Source: a virus | DNA: 64,000 bases | IMG/VR virus record: IMGVR_UViG_3300045988_162176 | Coordinates: 32,001-96,000 of that record | Direction: 5' to 3' (one strand) | Shown here: positions 38,369 through 45,326 of the stretch, in pieces | Layout: every line of letters begins with the position of its first letter | Position numbering within the stretch: the stretch's first letter is position 1 | Program-made: the position numbers and the translations under genes | Notes under the pieces: generated by a model | What the model was told of the DNA's origin: nothing | Seen by the model: the letters and a program-made list of their open reading frames with translations, nothing else | Databases searched by the model: none

Positions 38369-38740
38369 CTATTCAGATTTCAAAACAGAAATTTTAATTC
38401 CACCTTCCTCGAATTCATACTTGGCACGAGGAATTTTTACTCTTAAAGTACCAGTTTCTTCATTAGAATCCTGATTTACAATAGGTAGAGTAAAATTTAA
38501 ATTAACTGTATCATCGAAATTTTTCTCCATGTTAAATTCTTTTGGTTCAAATTTAACAAACATCTTAGATTTTTCAGAGCGAGAAAAATTTAAACTAAAA
38601 TCAGATGTGTTATTCAATTGAACAGAATTGTGTTTCAAACATGCAGTTAAACCACAATATCCTCTAATATTGGCGTATTCACAAGAAATGCCCTTTGCGT
38701 TACAATACCCTTTAGTGGGATAATAATCTCCTGTATTCAT
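38369..38740 (-). CDS. hypothetical protein
   Basis: 123-aa ORF; ends at TAG, and read-through would add only 3 codons. Confidence 0.7.
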   Translation of the reverse strand: MNTGDYYPTKGYCNAKGISCEYANIRGYCGLTACLKHNSVQLNNTSDFSLNFSRSEKSKMFVKFEPKEFNMEKNFDDTVNLNFTLPIVNQDSNEETGTLRVKIPRAKYEFEEGGIKISVLKSE

Positions 38741-38742
38741 TG

Positions 38743-39327
38743 TTAATTCCCCTTAAAGTAATACTCATAATGTTCTCCATCCCAAAGAGGATGTTTAACC
38801 ATCTTGTCAGTATTCCAATCAGAATATTCACCATTTTCGTTCACATCAGCAACATAACAATTATCATCAGGGTCGCAACCATTATCATTGCCAGTGTAAA
38901 TACAACTTTTTGGGTCAAAAAGAAAACGTTTTAACTTGTCATCGTCTTCAAGAATTTCATTAATGAAGGGAACAAGTTCTCCTGCATGGTCTACAGAACC
39001 GCCATTATCCCAAAATTCCCAACCACCATATTTGCTTGTTTCTCTTTTATAGGTTGGAACGAAAATTTTAATCTTAAAATCTTCTTCAAGTTTACGCTTA
39101 AAATCTTTCGCTTGAGCAAACATATCACAGTTAAGCATGGCAGTGTAAAGATAAGAAGCCTTATCTTCTGTGGAAGAGTAGCAACGTGTGTCCCAACCAT
39201 AATCTTCATCTGCATTAAAATTTAGATAAGCTGGAATATGTTTTGGACCATAATTGTCCTTTGAAATAACAAGAGAATGACAAGAACTTGAATTTGTCTC
39301 AAATACGTTCTTACGAATCTGTTTCAT
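38743..39327 (-). CDS. FETNSSS-motif family protein (copy 1 of 4)
   Basis: Start at MKQIRKNVFETNSSSCHSL; later GGSVDH and GNDNG motifs are shared with the paralogs. Confidence 0.7.
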   Translation of the reverse strand: MKQIRKNVFETNSSSCHSLVISKDNYGPKHIPAYLNFNADEDYGWDTRCYSSTEDKASYLYTAMLNCDMFAQAKDFKRKLEEDFKIKIFVPTYKRETSKYGGWEFWDNGGSVDHAGELVPFINEILEDDDKLKRFLFDPKSCIYTGNDNGCDPDDNCYVADVNENGEYSDWNTDKMVKHPLWDGEHYEYYFKGN

Positions 39328-40276
39328 TATTTGTCTCCTCATTCAAATCTCTCAAGAACTGATACATTTCAGTAACAGTCTTATCGCCAACATCATAACG
39401 ATTATTTACATCACAAGAATTTCTTGCAAACTGCATTTCTACTGCGTCAATGTACATAGAAGCACTGGTCTGTTCACCGTCTTGGCCATCATCGCCCATG
39501 TACATAGTATTCCAGTCTTCCTCAGACATAAGACGCTGAGGTTCGAGCTGTTTAATAGCAAGGTTGTCAAAACTAATAACAGAGAACCACTTCTCGTCAA
39601 TCATATGACCAAGATTGTCATAGATTGCTTTCTGTTTATTCGCTACAAGCTTCTTAGCCCAATCTTCCTTAACATATTCCTCACCACGACGAACAGTCTT
39701 ATAACCAAGAATGAGAATCTTAAGGTTACGATTCTTAAGAGCACGAAGAGTATCCATTGTTACAATACCATTAATGACATGGAGAACAAGATTAGGATAC
39801 TTAGAAATAGTCTTAAGGAACTGTGGCTGAAGAGGGTCAACAAGAGAGACCCCAATGCCATAGATGAACTTCTCATTAACAAGCTGTTCAATAAGCTCTT
39901 GATTCTTCATGAATTCAAACTGATGAACAGTAATATTGGGAATGAGTTTGAGTTCCTTGCACTTGCGGAGAAATGGAATCAAATCAGGGTGAGAAGTTAC
40001 TGCGCCACCGCCAACTGCAATTTCAGTGTATTCGTGAAAACTTTTAAGGAGATTTTGGAACTTTTCTCCCATAATATCGCCGCTTTTACCCTCTAAAGTG
40101 GCATTTTCATGACAAAATTTACAACCAATAGGGCAAAATCTGGTAATGCAAATGTCGGCGCTTTCTGGAAAATCAGCCTTGAAAAAGCTCAAATCATTTT
40201 CACGAGTTTTGGTTCCGTTGTCCAGATTCAGCTCCACTGTATAATTTCCGTTCTGATAGGTAACAATATTATCCAT
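39311..40276 (-). CDS. radical SAM domain protein
   Basis: 321 aa; CPIGCKFC (CxxxCxxC) cluster motif followed by a GGG-containing segment (EIAVGGGAVTSHPD). Confidence 0.7.
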   Translation of the reverse strand: MDNIVTYQNGNYTVELNLDNGTKTRENDLSFFKADFPESADICITRFCPIGCKFCHENATLEGKSGDIMGEKFQNLLKSFHEYTEIAVGGGAVTSHPDLIPFLRKCKELKLIPNITVHQFEFMKNQELIEQLVNEKFIYGIGVSLVDPLQPQFLKTISKYPNLVLHVINGIVTMDTLRALKNRNLKILILGYKTVRRGEEYVKEDWAKKLVANKQKAIYDNLGHMIDEKWFSVISFDNLAIKQLEPQRLMSEEDWNTMYMGDDGQDGEQTSASMYIDAVEMQFARNSCDVNNRYDVGDKTVTEMYQFLRDLNEETNNETDS

Positions 40277-40292
40277 TTTATTTTCCCTTTCT

Positions 40293-40466
40293 TTAATGTT
40301 CGATGCGAGGATTATCCTCCATATACTTCTTTACTTTGTCACCATCATAGCGAGAGGGACAAGCATTACAAAGGTAAGAACCATAATATTCACAAGCATG
40401 AACCTCTTCCTGAGACTTGGGAGCAGACTCACAATTCAGGTGGTCATATGCGCAATAAATCTTCAT
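40293..40466 (-). CDS. Cys-rich small protein (below the ORF-track cutoff)
   Basis: Hand translation: MKIYCAYDHLNCESAPKSQEEVHACEYYGSYLCNACPSRYDGDKVKKYMEDNPRIEH, 57 aa. Confidence 0.5.
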   Translation of the reverse strand: MKIYCAYDHLNCESAPKSQEEVHACEYYGSYLCNACPSRYDGDKVKKYMEDNPRIEH

Positions 40467-40468
40467 TT

Positions 40469-43538: not shown

Positions 43539-44333
43539 TTAAAATCCAGTCTGAGCACTCTTGAAATTCAAAGTCTTGCTAACCCCCTCAACTTCTGCAA
43601 CAATATCATCATATTCTTTGCCATCATAGGTGTATTTACCATTATTCTTTTTATTGACACGAACATGTCCATCAAAGTTTTTAATAATAGTAGCACAATG
43701 CTTGGGAAGGTTAAGATTGGGGTTATATTCCAAAACTTCATCCATAAGGAAGACACCAACCTGACCAGAATCAGCACAGAACTCTCCCATCTTTTCCTTG
43801 GTCAAGCTGTTGCGGACAGTGCATGACCAATCACCGTAAATAGTGTCGCAGACGATAAAAGTATTAAGACCAAGCTTTTCCATGGCTTCTCCACAGCAGC
43901 ACTTTCCCCAATCATCTTCCTGCTCAGTTTCCCACTTTGTTACAGCTTTGTTGTAAGCTTCATTTTCAGTTTCGTAAGTGGGAGAAAGAGGAATCACGCG
44001 AATATTAGGGTCTTTTGTTCTTGTCCCTCTAATCCACGTTTCATAAGCATCAACAAGTTTCGCTTCTCTCTCAGGAGTACGATGGCTTTCAGGAAGGTCG
44101 TAGATACGAAGAGGTTTCTTCATTTCAATATAAATAACATCTTCGTACATATCAGGAGTAGGATAACCTTTATGTCCATCCCCAATAATCTTATGTTTGG
44201 AATAATAATCTTCCATCTTAGGATAAGTATTGTAATTCATCTTACGGTCTTCGCGGATAATATAACAAGGGTCAGTAATGAGAATATCACCAACAAAACG
44301 AACAAAACGATTATACTGATTGCAAAAGTTCAT
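43539..44333 (-). CDS. hypothetical protein (possibly DUF4241-like)
   Basis: Start at MNFCNQYNRF (RBS AAGGAGAGG) because promoter 44365-44393 lies in the longer ORF; GDILITDPCYI and YGDWSC motifs. Confidence 0.6.
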   Translation of the reverse strand: MNFCNQYNRFVRFVGDILITDPCYIIREDRKMNYNTYPKMEDYYSKHKIIGDGHKGYPTPDMYEDVIYIEMKKPLRIYDLPESHRTPEREAKLVDAYETWIRGTRTKDPNIRVIPLSPTYETENEAYNKAVTKWETEQEDDWGKCCCGEAMEKLGLNTFIVCDTIYGDWSCTVRNSLTKEKMGEFCADSGQVGVFLMDEVLEYNPNLNLPKHCATIIKNFDGHVRVNKKNNGKYTYDGKEYDDIVAEVEGVSKTLNFKSAQTGF

Positions 44334-44364
44334 AAAAACACCTCTCCTTATTTTTTCTACTAAA

Positions 44365-44393
44365 AGAATATCATAAGGAGAGGTAAATGTCAA
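44365..44393 (-). promoter_or_regulatory. sigma-70-type promoter
   Basis: TTGACA-17-TATTCT. Confidence 0.55.
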
Positions 44394-44429
44394 GTGCTTA
44401 TTAAATTATTTCTTGTCGATTTTATTGTC

Positions 44430-44636
44430 TTAAAGAAGAGGAGAAACCTCATCAATAATTTCAAACTGGCTCAAATCATTAGCGTCAAACTTCTTGTCCT
44501 GCTCACAATACATAATGCCCACAAGACCAAGAGCACCAAACTGATTAGGAAGAGGCATAATCTGATATACACGATAAATCTTTCCATCAATTGAGTTCTT
44601 CTTCTTGCACTTAAACATACAACTATTATTAGCCAT
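44430..44636 (-). CDS. hypothetical small protein
   Basis: 68-aa ORF, RBS AAGGAG. Confidence 0.65.
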   Translation of the reverse strand: MANNSCMFKCKKKNSIDGKIYRVYQIMPLPNQFGALGLVGIMYCEQDKKFDANDLSQFEIIDEVSPLL

Positions 44637-44777
44637 TTTAATTACTCCTTAATTGTTTTTTCACCCTGTTTTTGCAACTTTTTTATTAAAAAACAAGGGA
44701 AATTATTAATTTTTTAATAAAAATTGATACGATAAAATTTCACTTTTATTCTATCTTGTTTTATTTTGTTTTAATAA

Positions 44778-45326
44778 TTAGTGATTGTCATTGTCGATAA
44801 ACAAACTATAACACTTATTAAAAATATAATCTTCTAATGTAATTCCATCTCTTGCAAAAATATAATACATTCCATCAGAAACATAATAATCAAGACTTTG
44901 ATGGTCTACATAACCATCTTCATCAGGACTAATTTCAATTCCTATAATGTGAATATCATGCTTAGAAAGAGCGTGCTTTACATCATCTTCAAATTTTTGG
45001 AAATCATCAGATTCCATAACTTCTTTAATAGCTTCTTCTTTATCTTCTCTACTGCTCCAATTAATATTATAACCTTGGAAACAAGTTATAGCAGTTAAGA
45101 TATATTCAAGTTTAGCTATTGCGCTATTTTCATCTAAATCAGAGTCCCAACCCCATCCAAAGGTTTCAAAATTTAATTTTAAATATTTACCGTAACCATT
45201 GTGACCATAATCCTCTTCAATGTAATCATCTAACTGAGTATAATCATAATTATCTTTACTACTAATACTCAATGAATGAACACTTGAAGAATTAGTCTCA
45301 AAAACATTTTTTCTAATTTGTTTCAT
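44778..45326 (-). CDS. FETNSSS-motif family protein (copy 4)
   Basis: MKQIRKNVFETNSSSVHSL...DGYVDHQS...IDNDNH. Confidence 0.7.
   Translation of the reverse strand: MKQIRKNVFETNSSSVHSLSISSKDNYDYTQLDDYIEEDYGHNGYGKYLKLNFETFGWGWDSDLDENSAIAKLEYILTAITCFQGYNINWSSREDKEEAIKEVMESDDFQKFEDDVKHALSKHDIHIIGIEISPDEDGYVDHQSLDYYVSDGMYYIFARDGITLEDYIFNKCYSLFIDNDNH

Follow-up and report, generated by a model that had tools for sequence, protein, structure and literature searches.

A radical SAM gene and tagged proteins in a large gut phage

A 64,000-nucleotide stretch of viral DNA (positions 32,001 to 96,000 of IMG/VR record IMGVR_UViG_3300045988_162176; the window, hereafter) contains a block of closely packed genes at 38369–45326, in which the gene for a radical S-adenosylmethionine (SAM) enzyme is accompanied by four genes whose products begin with nearly the same short sequence, referred to here as the tag. 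The minus strand carries all genes of this 64-kb window, and the GC content is about 31%. Near-identical DNA was not found among GenBank phages. Relatives that encode 82–94% identical proteins in the same gene order are human-gut metagenome contigs and IMG/VR viral contigs of 98–220 kb, one relative contig being binned as "uncultured Clostridium sp.", and the window can therefore be assigned to the small-gene, early-type region of a large gut phage.

A first-pass annotation treated the whole 7-kb block, which also encodes four small membrane proteins, a Cys-rich peptide and a product labelled DUF4241-like, as a functional module. Its description of the common N-terminus is accurate: four genes start with MKQIRKNVFETNSSS.HS, and these are the only such open reading frames (ORFs) in the six frames of the window. 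The idea of a module holds for the radical SAM gene and the tagged proteins and fails for the block as a whole; what is conserved is a smaller unit, the radical SAM gene together with the genes for tagged proteins, a combination referred to below as the cassette.

The linkage within the cassette is seen in several ways. First, among loci seeded with the tag, taking one genome per GTDB species, 58 of 75 have an orthologue of the radical SAM gene within a few kb, mostly adjacent and on the same strand, and several of the loci that lack one are short contigs. Second, 77 of 80 IMG/VR loci seeded with the radical SAM gene contain one to four tagged ORFs. Third, tblastn searches of GenBank phages with the radical SAM protein and with tagged copy 1 (copies are numbered as in Table 1) return the same records, from the Prevotella Lak megaphages and the Microcystis Ma-LMM01 group, and in these the genes lie near each other. 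Lak-B1 has the radical SAM gene and then directly four tagged genes; the order in Microcystis phage LMM01 is gp130 (tagged), gp129, gp128 (radical SAM), and in Rhodothermus phage RM378 it is gp108 (radical SAM), gp107, gp106 (tagged, class A as defined below), the last of which matches only itself among GenBank phages. Finally, in Salmonella phage Arash the two are fused in a single polypeptide, gp146c, annotated as "methyltransferase", of which the first ~150 residues are a class A tagged domain (MYLTQIRYGFATNSSSSHS…GYIDHES…GGNDN) and the remainder is the radical SAM enzyme. This fusion has no match in IMG/VR, and gp146c is not discussed in the Arash paper, which contains no methyltransferase, radical or gp146 term. 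A 461-aa viral protein labelled "Radical_SAM domain" in BFVD weakly matches the class A model (E=0.45, 157 columns) and is possibly a second fusion.

The commonest layout is class A, class B, radical SAM, with class B usually ending at the start of the radical SAM gene; class B is the sole tagged gene in several phages, and class A is alone in LMM01, RM378 and Arash. Between one and nine tagged genes accompany each radical SAM gene. The largest expansion seen, nine tagged genes within 12 kb of one radical SAM gene, occurs in rumen contigs from metagenome-assembled genomes (MAGs; loci L060 and L061), and loci L039 and L040 have six tagged genes each. The flanking genes are very heterogeneous (385 clusters among 463 proteins), and neither their clustering nor a Pfam census of 150 neighbour representatives revealed a third conserved component. 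A cellular, non-phage context was considered and rejected: the isolate-genome cassettes examined lie in prophages, with prophage-like loci recognizable by Rha/ANT, YopX and PHROG matches. Host labels such as Methanobrevibacter or CPR (candidate phyla radiation) could be binning artefacts.

The first-pass annotation had made its module depend on conserved linkage, and between the radical SAM gene and the tag this linkage extends across very distant phages and becomes a fusion in one. Profile searches, which it proposed as a further check, gave for the genes of the block only a generic radical SAM match and two PHROGs of unknown function. Its remark that nothing described matches also stands, there being no Pfam, NCBIfam or PADLOC entry that describes the cassette; literature on Lak phage radical SAM enzymes, the TNSSS motif, and anti-defence or phage-encoded radical SAM enzymes yielded no description of it.

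The tag and the proteins that carry it

The tag has the consensus M-[KR]-[QT]-[IV]-R-x-x-[VT]-F-E-T-N-S-S-S-x-H-[SA]-[LIV] in 191 distinct ORFs. Within this set F, T, N, S, S and H are conserved in 100%, E in 99% and the R at -4 in 98%; detection was by a regular expression and partly forces this conservation; still, at F, E, T and H the expression would have accepted other residues, none of which occurred, and it did not include the R. The position is also fixed, the tag starting 8–9 residues past Met1 in 166 of the 191 ORFs, and the invariance spans phages of cyanobacteria, Bacteroidota, Firmicutes, Salmonella and Rhodothermus. The four tag-coding stretches of the window differ at synonymous sites (TCx versus AGy for Ser, CGT versus AGA for Arg), and the identity of the tags therefore reflects selection at the protein level and neither chance nor gene conversion. 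On these grounds, and because each copy represents an old subfamily, recent duplication and gene conversion were rejected as the source of the common N-terminus. The invariant core F-E-T-N-S-S-S-x-H contains no Gly, and the (C/S)-x-P-x-R motif of sulfatases is not in the tag.

The tag sits on at least three protein bodies, classes A, B and C, without detectable homology to one another. When the tags are removed, class A and class B bodies are related with an hhalign probability of 0.4%, and a BLAST comparison of copy 2 with copy 1 aligns only residues 1–21. Class A proteins are ~177 aa long, and copies 1, 3 and 4 of the window fall there in body-only clustering. Copy 1 matches phrog_28997 (E=3.5e-22), a PHROG of undescribed function, and its 302 homologue clusters include none with a Pfam domain; the invariant residues of its subfamily 1 are R5, E10-T-N-S-S-S15, H17, G44-W45, D113-H114, T145-G-N-D-N149 and a C-terminal K192-G-N194. 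A class A profile recovers 5117 clusters (50% identity) at E<=1e-3 among 1.84 billion representatives, and in nearly all of the 150 listed the match starts within the first few residues. Class B proteins (~95–150 aa) are conserved only in the tag, in a strand region E-Y-x-x-W-x-x-G and in a C-terminal hairpin TPSGDxxVAFGxYGYD (that of copy 2 is given in Table 1), with a variable charged spacer between the conserved ends. Class C proteins are 270–320 aa long, with a C-x6-G-C-x3-C-x-C-G cluster and a T-G-E-I-Y end.

The four copies in the window are, judged by their sequences, anciently diverged subfamilies that travel together. Tag-stripped BLAST finds body homologues of copies 1, 2, 3 and 4 in 47, 16, 13 and 9 loci, and because each copy thus has relatives in distant loci, we regard them as old subfamilies and not as recent duplicates. 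The expanded family of the first-pass annotation is accordingly real as to its four copies, but not as a local burst, since each is an old subfamily that recurs in other phages.

The bodies resemble little that is known. AlphaFold2 (AF2) models in this analysis rest on 18–29 sequences; that of copy 1 is confident, with a predicted local distance difference test (pLDDT) score of 88.9 and a predicted template-modelling score (pTM) of 0.84. Residues 1–14 of the class A model have no secondary structure and the first ten have a pLDDT of ~50. In Foldseek searches the class A model finds no fold in the PDB (best E=1) and, in BFVD, only uncharacterised viral proteins. Neither the class A nor the class B profile has a significant match among PDB sequences, and ten further tagged proteins, including the longest, have no significant Pfam match (one matches VirC1 at E=0.033, below cutoff). 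No tagged body gave a Sulfatase Pfam match or a sulfatase-type fold in the PDB.

The radical SAM enzyme and its N-terminal hairpin

Membership of the radical SAM superfamily, as claimed in the first-pass annotation, is clear: the protein scores 36.2 bits against Pfam PF04055 (gathering cutoff 29.5), Foldseek aligns its model to many radical SAM structures with probability 1.0, and its single CxxxCxxC motif reads C48-PIG-C52-KF-C55 (C48-x3-C52-x2-C55). It has a GGG SAM motif and six Cys in all, and the family alignment shows the further invariant motifs FCHE, GKHGD, LGYK..RG, SFDNL, MGDDG and YID. It matches phrog_16999 ("Fe-S oxidoreductase", E=7.2e-35), a family without described function, and its own family comprises more than 5000 clusters at 90% identity. 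In one orthologue, on a MAG contig (L049, 3593–5704), the gene is split by an intein with a homing-endonuclease domain, located exactly at the GGG SAM-binding motif.

The enzyme does not fall into a described subfamily. There are no SPASM/twitch cysteines, and no Cys beyond CxxxCxxC is conserved in the family alignment. Against the NCBIfam equivalogs every subfamily score is far under its cutoff: SPASM families give 17–23 bits against cutoffs above 350, which places the enzyme outside the SPASM/twitch maturases, and the glycyl-radical activases NrdG2 and PFLA give 21.8 bits against 131 and 15.4 against 232. The radical SAM enzymes of thymidine hypermodification (M6/ViI type) are not its relatives either, tblastn against 50,697 phage records matching only Lak phages, Microcystis phages and Arash; nor were the associated 5-hydroxymethyldeoxyuridine kinase, transferase and pyridoxal-phosphate enzyme genes seen in surveys of the neighbourhood. 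Klebsiella phage KP15_135, which weakly matches the radical SAM part, was set aside as a different enzyme of the SPASM type. Searches of PDB sequences with the protein and with its profile gave weak matches in the cluster region only (SuiB, PqqE, viperin-like enzymes and others). The top PDB neighbours of the AF2 model (pLDDT 83.6) in Foldseek are SuiB, AbmM, EpeE, DesII, PqqE, anSME and SpeY, followed by viperin and MoaA. In the model comparison these appear to lean towards peptide and protein maturases and alcohol-oxidising radical SAM enzymes, with a similarity that is only that of the generic core (TM-scores of 0.4–0.6).

A three-strand sheet formed by residues 4–26 precedes the barrel in the model. 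This N-terminal element is a three-strand hairpin of ~26 residues, Y-x-N-G-N-Y ... G-T-K, with invariant Y7, N9, G10, G21 and T22. The hairpin, Y-x-N-G-N…G-T, is present in 140 of the 142 family members in the fetched loci: a regular expression finds it in 137, in L060 and L061 an insert precedes it, and a frameshift puts it out of frame in L046. In this last locus the hairpin (~6700–6830) lies in another frame than the rest of the gene, which could be an assembly error, a pseudogene or a programmed frameshift. Of the remaining two, RM378 lacks the hairpin and the Arash fusion has a degenerate version of it (RRDEARGSVFF…GTK). It is in precisely this pair of phages that the tags have lost F-E (MKAFIRFGLS-TNSSSSHS and IRYGFA-TNSSSSHS) while keeping the R and TNSSS.HS. 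As a pattern in aligned sequences, this covariation fits docking of the first half of the tag on the hairpin, with a separate, chemistry-related role for the second half.

The same covariation bears on whether the association with a radical SAM gene is incidental. Variable bodies that share one N-terminal sequence, set at a constant distance from Met1 and encoded in a hyperplastic region of large phages, resemble the internal-protein locus of phage T4, and the tag might be a sorting signal for capsid targeting as in the T4 internal proteins, for secretion or for packaging. We consider this very unlikely. The T4 capsid-targeting sequence is likewise a conserved N-terminal peptide on otherwise unrelated small proteins from a plastic region of a large phage, but it is lineage-specific and cleaved by the prohead protease, whereas the tag is invariant across phage groups and tied to a radical SAM enzyme. 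A sorting signal would be expected to co-evolve with the machinery of each phage and not to stay invariant from cyanophage to megaphage, and it leaves the two-way co-occurrence with the radical SAM gene, the fusion and the hairpin covariation unexplained. Arash gp146c is, besides, annotated as a methyltransferase, whereas several nearby genes are annotated "structural protein".

The structural neighbours raise a different possibility, that the tag is a recognition leader as in ribosomally synthesised and post-translationally modified peptides (RiPPs), with chemistry at the Tyr/Gly-rich C-termini giving a peptide-derived product or cofactor in the manner of PqqA/PqqE and MftA/MftC. RiPP maturases (SuiB, PqqE, EpeE/YydG, MftC) are the best structural neighbours, PqqE and SuiB being among the top ones, and have a small partner gene directly upstream, as class B is here; in them an N-terminal domain of the enzyme binds a conserved N-terminal recognition segment, as we propose for the cassette. 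Class B is conserved chiefly in the tag and the C-terminal hairpin, and the extreme C-termini are conserved in all three classes (…FGYYGYDG in B, …Y.YFKGN in A and …TGEIY in C). Even so, this reading is improbable. A Tyr-rich C-terminus is missing from class A subfamilies 3 and 4, and in the Arash fusion the radical SAM enzyme replaces the class A C-terminus. The hairpin of ~26 residues is not a PqqD-like RiPP recognition element (RRE), there is no Pfam match to PqqD or an RRE in the enzyme or the block, and the conserved neighbourhood holds no SPASM or twitch domain, protease, exporter or other transporter. RiPP leaders are rarely so invariant. The partners of the cassette enzyme are folded proteins of 100–320 aa in at least three classes. 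Class B itself gives a mixed picture: it has conserved ends and lies directly upstream of the radical SAM gene in most loci, as a precursor gene would, yet at ~95–150 aa it is long for a precursor, and no processing genes are conserved nearby.

A proposed role in protein maturation

Our preferred reading, held tentatively and somewhat short of probable, is that the radical SAM enzyme docks the tag on its N-terminal β-hairpin and carries out radical chemistry on TNSSS.H, and so brings a set of phage effectors to their mature form. In the free protein the first half of the tag (…R..VFE) is predicted to be flexible; it would dock as a strand on the hairpin, and this would place T-N-S-S-S-x-H in the active site of the enzyme. 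There the 5'-deoxyadenosyl radical would take a hydrogen from one of these residues; precedented outcomes would be conversion of Ser to formylglycine, epimerisation or a cross-link. One maturase could thus mature several unrelated bodies, the enzyme-like class A (with D-H and G-N-D-N), the small and acidic class B and class C with its Cys cluster, and the matured proteins would act early in infection, encoded as they are in a region rich in DNA methylases and in tRNA-repair and counter-defence-type genes. The case for one maturase acting on a common N-terminal site is that the tag alone is common to the unrelated bodies, is invariant across phages, lies at the extreme N-terminus, is predicted to be flexible, and is linked many-to-one with the radical SAM gene. 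A bolder version is possible but more doubtful: that, in a phage-wide system not recognised before, a minimal radical SAM enzyme without auxiliary clusters installs a new post-translational modification or a protein-derived cofactor in an invariant N-terminal T-N-S-S-S-x-H loop grafted onto at least three unrelated folds, one of which has no relative in the PDB, giving a new class of phage effectors. Such effectors would serve, for example, in counter-defence or in tRNA/RNA repair.

However, several points weigh against maturation of the tag. First, the data show the linkage, the fusion, an invariant tag at a fixed N-terminal position on unrelated bodies, and the covariation of tag and hairpin, while docking, the tag as substrate, the chemistry and the biological role are what we infer. 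Second, natural fusion of an enzyme to a tagged protein is seen more typically with subunits than with enzyme–substrate pairs. Third, the invariants of subfamily 1 outside the tag (D113-H114, N147-D-N149, K192 and N194) suggest, from the alignment, that TNSSS.H may belong to an active site of class A itself. Fourth, radical SAM enzymes that oxidise or cross-link proteins and peptides usually carry SPASM/twitch clusters; this one has no auxiliary clusters, and the oxidative options are weakened for that reason. Fifth, the likeness to maturases in Foldseek is at the level of the generic core. Finally, the hairpin/tag covariation involves two lineages, and the loci are phylogenetically non-independent, many of them from MAG or viral bins.

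The second and third of these points lead to the notion that the tagged proteins are interchangeable subunits or adaptors, in which the tag locks a body onto the radical SAM enzyme and may complete its active site, and the bodies steer the chemistry elsewhere, possible targets being tRNA/RNA, DNA, nucleotides or host proteins. The class A::radical SAM fusion of Arash points to a stable complex, and class A has enzyme-like invariants outside the tag. The gene neighbourhood lends this some colour: genes of the CCA-adding/poly(A)-polymerase family recur, though not universally, in ~30 of 166 fetched loci, RM378 and a Eubacterium prophage among them, RlaP in 7 loci, PAPS-reductase-like genes in 11 and DNA methylases in ~35, and an RNA ligase gene lies near the Arash and RM378 cassettes; the intein at the GGG motif of one radical SAM enzyme follows a pattern typical of enzymes of nucleic-acid metabolism. 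We nonetheless judge this reading, the main rival, less likely than maturation of the tag. An interface seldom needs seven invariant polar residues across such distant phages, and TNSSS.HS is still invariant in the Arash fusion, where docking is no longer needed. Moreover, no tagged body matches a nucleic-acid-binding or other Pfam domain, and the neighbours are as heterogeneous as noted above.

Comparison with described systems

If the enzyme does mature its tagged partners, a close parallel is with anSME/AtsB and the sulfatases, where one radical SAM enzyme serves many paralogous proteins with a short, invariant, Ser-containing N-terminal motif, and hydrogen is abstracted from a Ser or Cys side chain, as proposed here; anSME is among the Foldseek neighbours. 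The cassette differs in having no (C/S)xPxR motif and no SPASM clusters, in bodies that are not sulfatases of the alkaline-phosphatase fold, and in being phage-borne. The HXS anti-phage system is a bacterial case in which the radical SAM enzymes HxsB and HxsC mature the protein effector HxsA in phage–bacterium conflict, and it comprises two such enzymes and HxsD, HxS repeats and a periplasmic effector (PMC13128918). Radical SAM maturation of a full-size effector, His/Ser motifs and N-terminal processing would be common to both on our proposal. The cassette, in contrast, is phage-encoded and has one radical SAM enzyme and a single TNSSS.HS tag; it shows no HxS repeats, no Hxs family in NCBIfam at E<=0.1 and no PADLOC match. 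With the glycyl-radical activases (PFL-AE, NrdG) it has in common a small, single-cluster radical SAM enzyme with a cognate protein partner, and weak NrdG/PFL-AE profile matches, but these scores are far below the cutoffs, a Gly-radical motif is missing, and the partners of the cassette enzyme have no relation to glycyl-radical enzymes.

Organization of the block and lineage-restricted genes

In the direction of transcription the first half of the block consists of tagged copy 4, a 68-aa ORF, a 284-aa ORF, copy 3, a 149-aa ORF and copy 2, and the second half of four paralogs with two transmembrane (TM) segments, a 57-aa Cys-rich ORF, the radical SAM gene, copy 1 and a 123-aa ORF (Table 1). The predicted promoter in the gap between class B and the TM genes could start a unit that runs from there to the 123-aa ORF; similar sigma-70-like sites were found by the same consensus scan at 45879–45851 and 37879–37851.

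Table 1. Genes and predicted features of the block at 38369–45326, with positions in the window
Feature	Position	Strand	Basis and remarks
123-aa ORF, Cys-rich N-terminus, last gene of the run	38369–38740	-	ORF reading
Tagged copy 1, class A subfamily 1, 194 aa	38743–39327	-	phrog_28997; 17-nt overlap with the stop of the radical SAM gene
Radical SAM gene, 321 aa	39311–40276	-	CPIGCKFC; PF04055, phrog_16999
57-aa ORF, 5 Cys, directly upstream of the radical SAM gene	40293–40466	-	ORF reading
Four tandem two-TM paralogs, 134/128/118/120 aa	40469–41947	-	Alignment, BLAST
Predicted sigma-70-like promoter, 11/12 match	41968–41996	-	Consensus scan only; 99-nt gap between class B and TM genes
Tagged copy 2, class B, 147 aa	42046–42489	-	Tag and C-terminal hairpin SPSGDKLVITCAYGYN
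149-aa ORF, ends overlapping copy 3 and copy 2	42473–42922	-	Weak sub-threshold WWE_4 match
Tagged copy 3, class A subfamily 3, 210 aa, acidic C-terminal tail	42897–43529	-	Body clustering
284-aa ORF (264 aa from the start used by relatives)	43539–44393	-	GD..ITDPCYI, YGDW.C and FCAD.G.V.VF motifs
Tagged copy 4, class A subfamily 4, 182 aa	44778–45326	-	GYVDH and IDNDN motifs; DNDNH end

Several of the smaller genes are as first annotated. The 57-aa ORF does hold five Cys, and each of the four tandem membrane proteins has two predicted TM segments and a common C-terminal module of ~45 aa. Pairwise BLAST E-values among the TM paralogs range from 1e-24 to 6e-4, with the third copy diverging most; the fourth member joins the family at E=6e-4 with the same architecture of two TM segments and a C-terminal module. 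They have no PHROG or PADLOC match, and in Pfam only sub-threshold matches to Rhomboid and Phage_holin_3_6. The 57-aa and 123-aa ORFs match no family in Pfam, PHROGs, NCBIfam or PADLOC, and the WWE_4 match of the 149-aa ORF scores 19.1 bits against a Pfam cutoff of 24.5. Two of the earlier labels were not borne out. Only two families, the tagged proteins (four members) and the TM proteins, are recovered as expanded in the block by all-against-all BLAST of the window proteins, where three had been counted. The label DUF4241 for the 284-aa product was rejected at the level of hidden Markov models, with no Pfam match at E<=0.1; none of 25 diverse homologues matches DUF4241 at E<=1, and none of 120 listed has a precomputed Pfam domain. 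This family comprises at least 386 clusters, is uncharacterised and occurs on large phage contigs of up to 541 kb; its invariant Cys/Asp motifs look catalytic in the alignment.

Among the fetched loci, the TM genes, the 284-aa gene and the 123-aa gene are found only in close relatives (L004–L006 and L009 for the TM and 284-aa genes; L004, L005 and L009 for the 123-aa ORF). The Cys-rich, 149-aa and 68-aa ORFs extend to the next clade, L007 and L008, and thus occur in L004–L009 only, where the 57-aa Cys-rich ORF is 59–98% identical. Because of this restriction to close relatives or one clade further, the neighbour genes are lineage-specific passengers, the TM genes being inserted between class B and the radical SAM gene. 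The least probable of the readings considered is therefore that the entire 7-kb block, including the TM, Cys-rich and 284-aa proteins, forms one superinfection-exclusion or envelope-modification system. In its favour, all the genes run in one direction, closely packed and with stops that overlap starts, the TM genes lie between class B and the radical SAM gene, and synteny is kept in close relatives; yet the TM, 284-aa and 123-aa genes are absent beyond the closest relatives, the cassette occurs in hundreds of phages without them, and there are no functional PADLOC or PHROG matches. For the conserved part, nothing found favours a role in superinfection exclusion or envelope modification, and of the roles first suggested it is peptide or protein modification that remains a candidate.

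Runs of paralogs are also found outside the block. Seven consecutive small genes (65–104 aa) at 11352–13110 on the minus strand form one BLAST family, and further sets, several of them two-gene pairs, lie at 213–1246, 14104–14566 and 19305–20496. Given these other tandem sets, paralog runs are a general habit of this phage genome and not peculiar to the block.

Other features of the window and of related loci

In the window and its relatives the cassette lies amid a C5 DNA methylase, a DUF2828/vWA protein, a protein resembling the Acb2/Tad1 hairpin domain and a tRNA array. Such surroundings group it with early accessory, counter-defence or repair genes, as context and not as proof. The methylase gene is at 34302–35243. 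Directly downstream of the block, at 36030–37796, is a DUF2828/DUF7788/vWA (TROVE-like) protein gene, in a 2-kb stretch with a GC fraction of 0.42 compared with ~0.31 elsewhere; a plus-strand ORF of 543 aa at 36135–37766 is its antisense shadow. About 8 kb upstream of the radical SAM gene, a 121-aa protein (48159–48524, minus strand) matches the Acb2/Tad1 hairpin domain (E=2.6e-5; 24.8 bits against a Pfam cutoff of 27), and the same gene is flagged in L004, L005 and L007. From its sequence this is a possible cyclic-nucleotide sponge directed against CBASS or Thoeris.

The minus strand carries 17 tRNA genes between 49679 and 61688, one of which (49679–49749) has the anticodon CTA, reading UAG, and is labelled tRNA-Pyl by ARAGORN. 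TAG is the rarest stop among the minus-strand ORFs (10 of 141), and, on these two features, part of the phage genome may use amber suppression or a recoded stop codon. The early region also contains a TnpB/IS605 OrfB-type protein gene (29166–30317, minus strand; HTH_OrfB_IS605, OrfB_IS605 and Cas12f1-like TNB domains), and two auxiliary genes unusual for a phage, both on the minus strand, encode a polyprenyl synthetase homologue (60797–61561; E=8e-39) and a peptidoglycan-binding, SPOR-domain protein (21226–22119).

Genes of RNA-repair type adjoin the cassette in unrelated phages. In the Eubacterium prophage (L050, 1034–5287 and 7877–8677) RlaP, a CCA-adding enzyme with an HD domain, DHHA1 and vWA-TerF lie by the cassette; in RM378 (L164, 3250–4335) a gene of the poly(A)-polymerase family and an RNA ligase are nearby, and in Arash (L002, 6398–6850) an RNA ligase.

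Significance

The cassette is abundant, occurring in thousands of phages, and the hosts of these are very different: Lak megaphages, cultured cyanophages, a thermophile phage and a Salmonella phage all carry it. No model in Pfam, NCBIfam or PADLOC represents it, class A has no structural relative, and the literature found does not describe it. Modification of the tag by the radical SAM enzyme, if it occurs, would be new both as a protein modification and in its logic of one maturase serving a common N-terminal tag on unrelated bodies, and the small enzyme-and-tag pair might find use in site-specific protein modification. If the tagged proteins are adaptors, they would represent a new way to target radical chemistry. 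Either reading gives a testable hypothesis for thousands of "hypothetical" phage genes, and the cultured phages Arash, Ma-LMM01 and RM378 provide experimental access to them.

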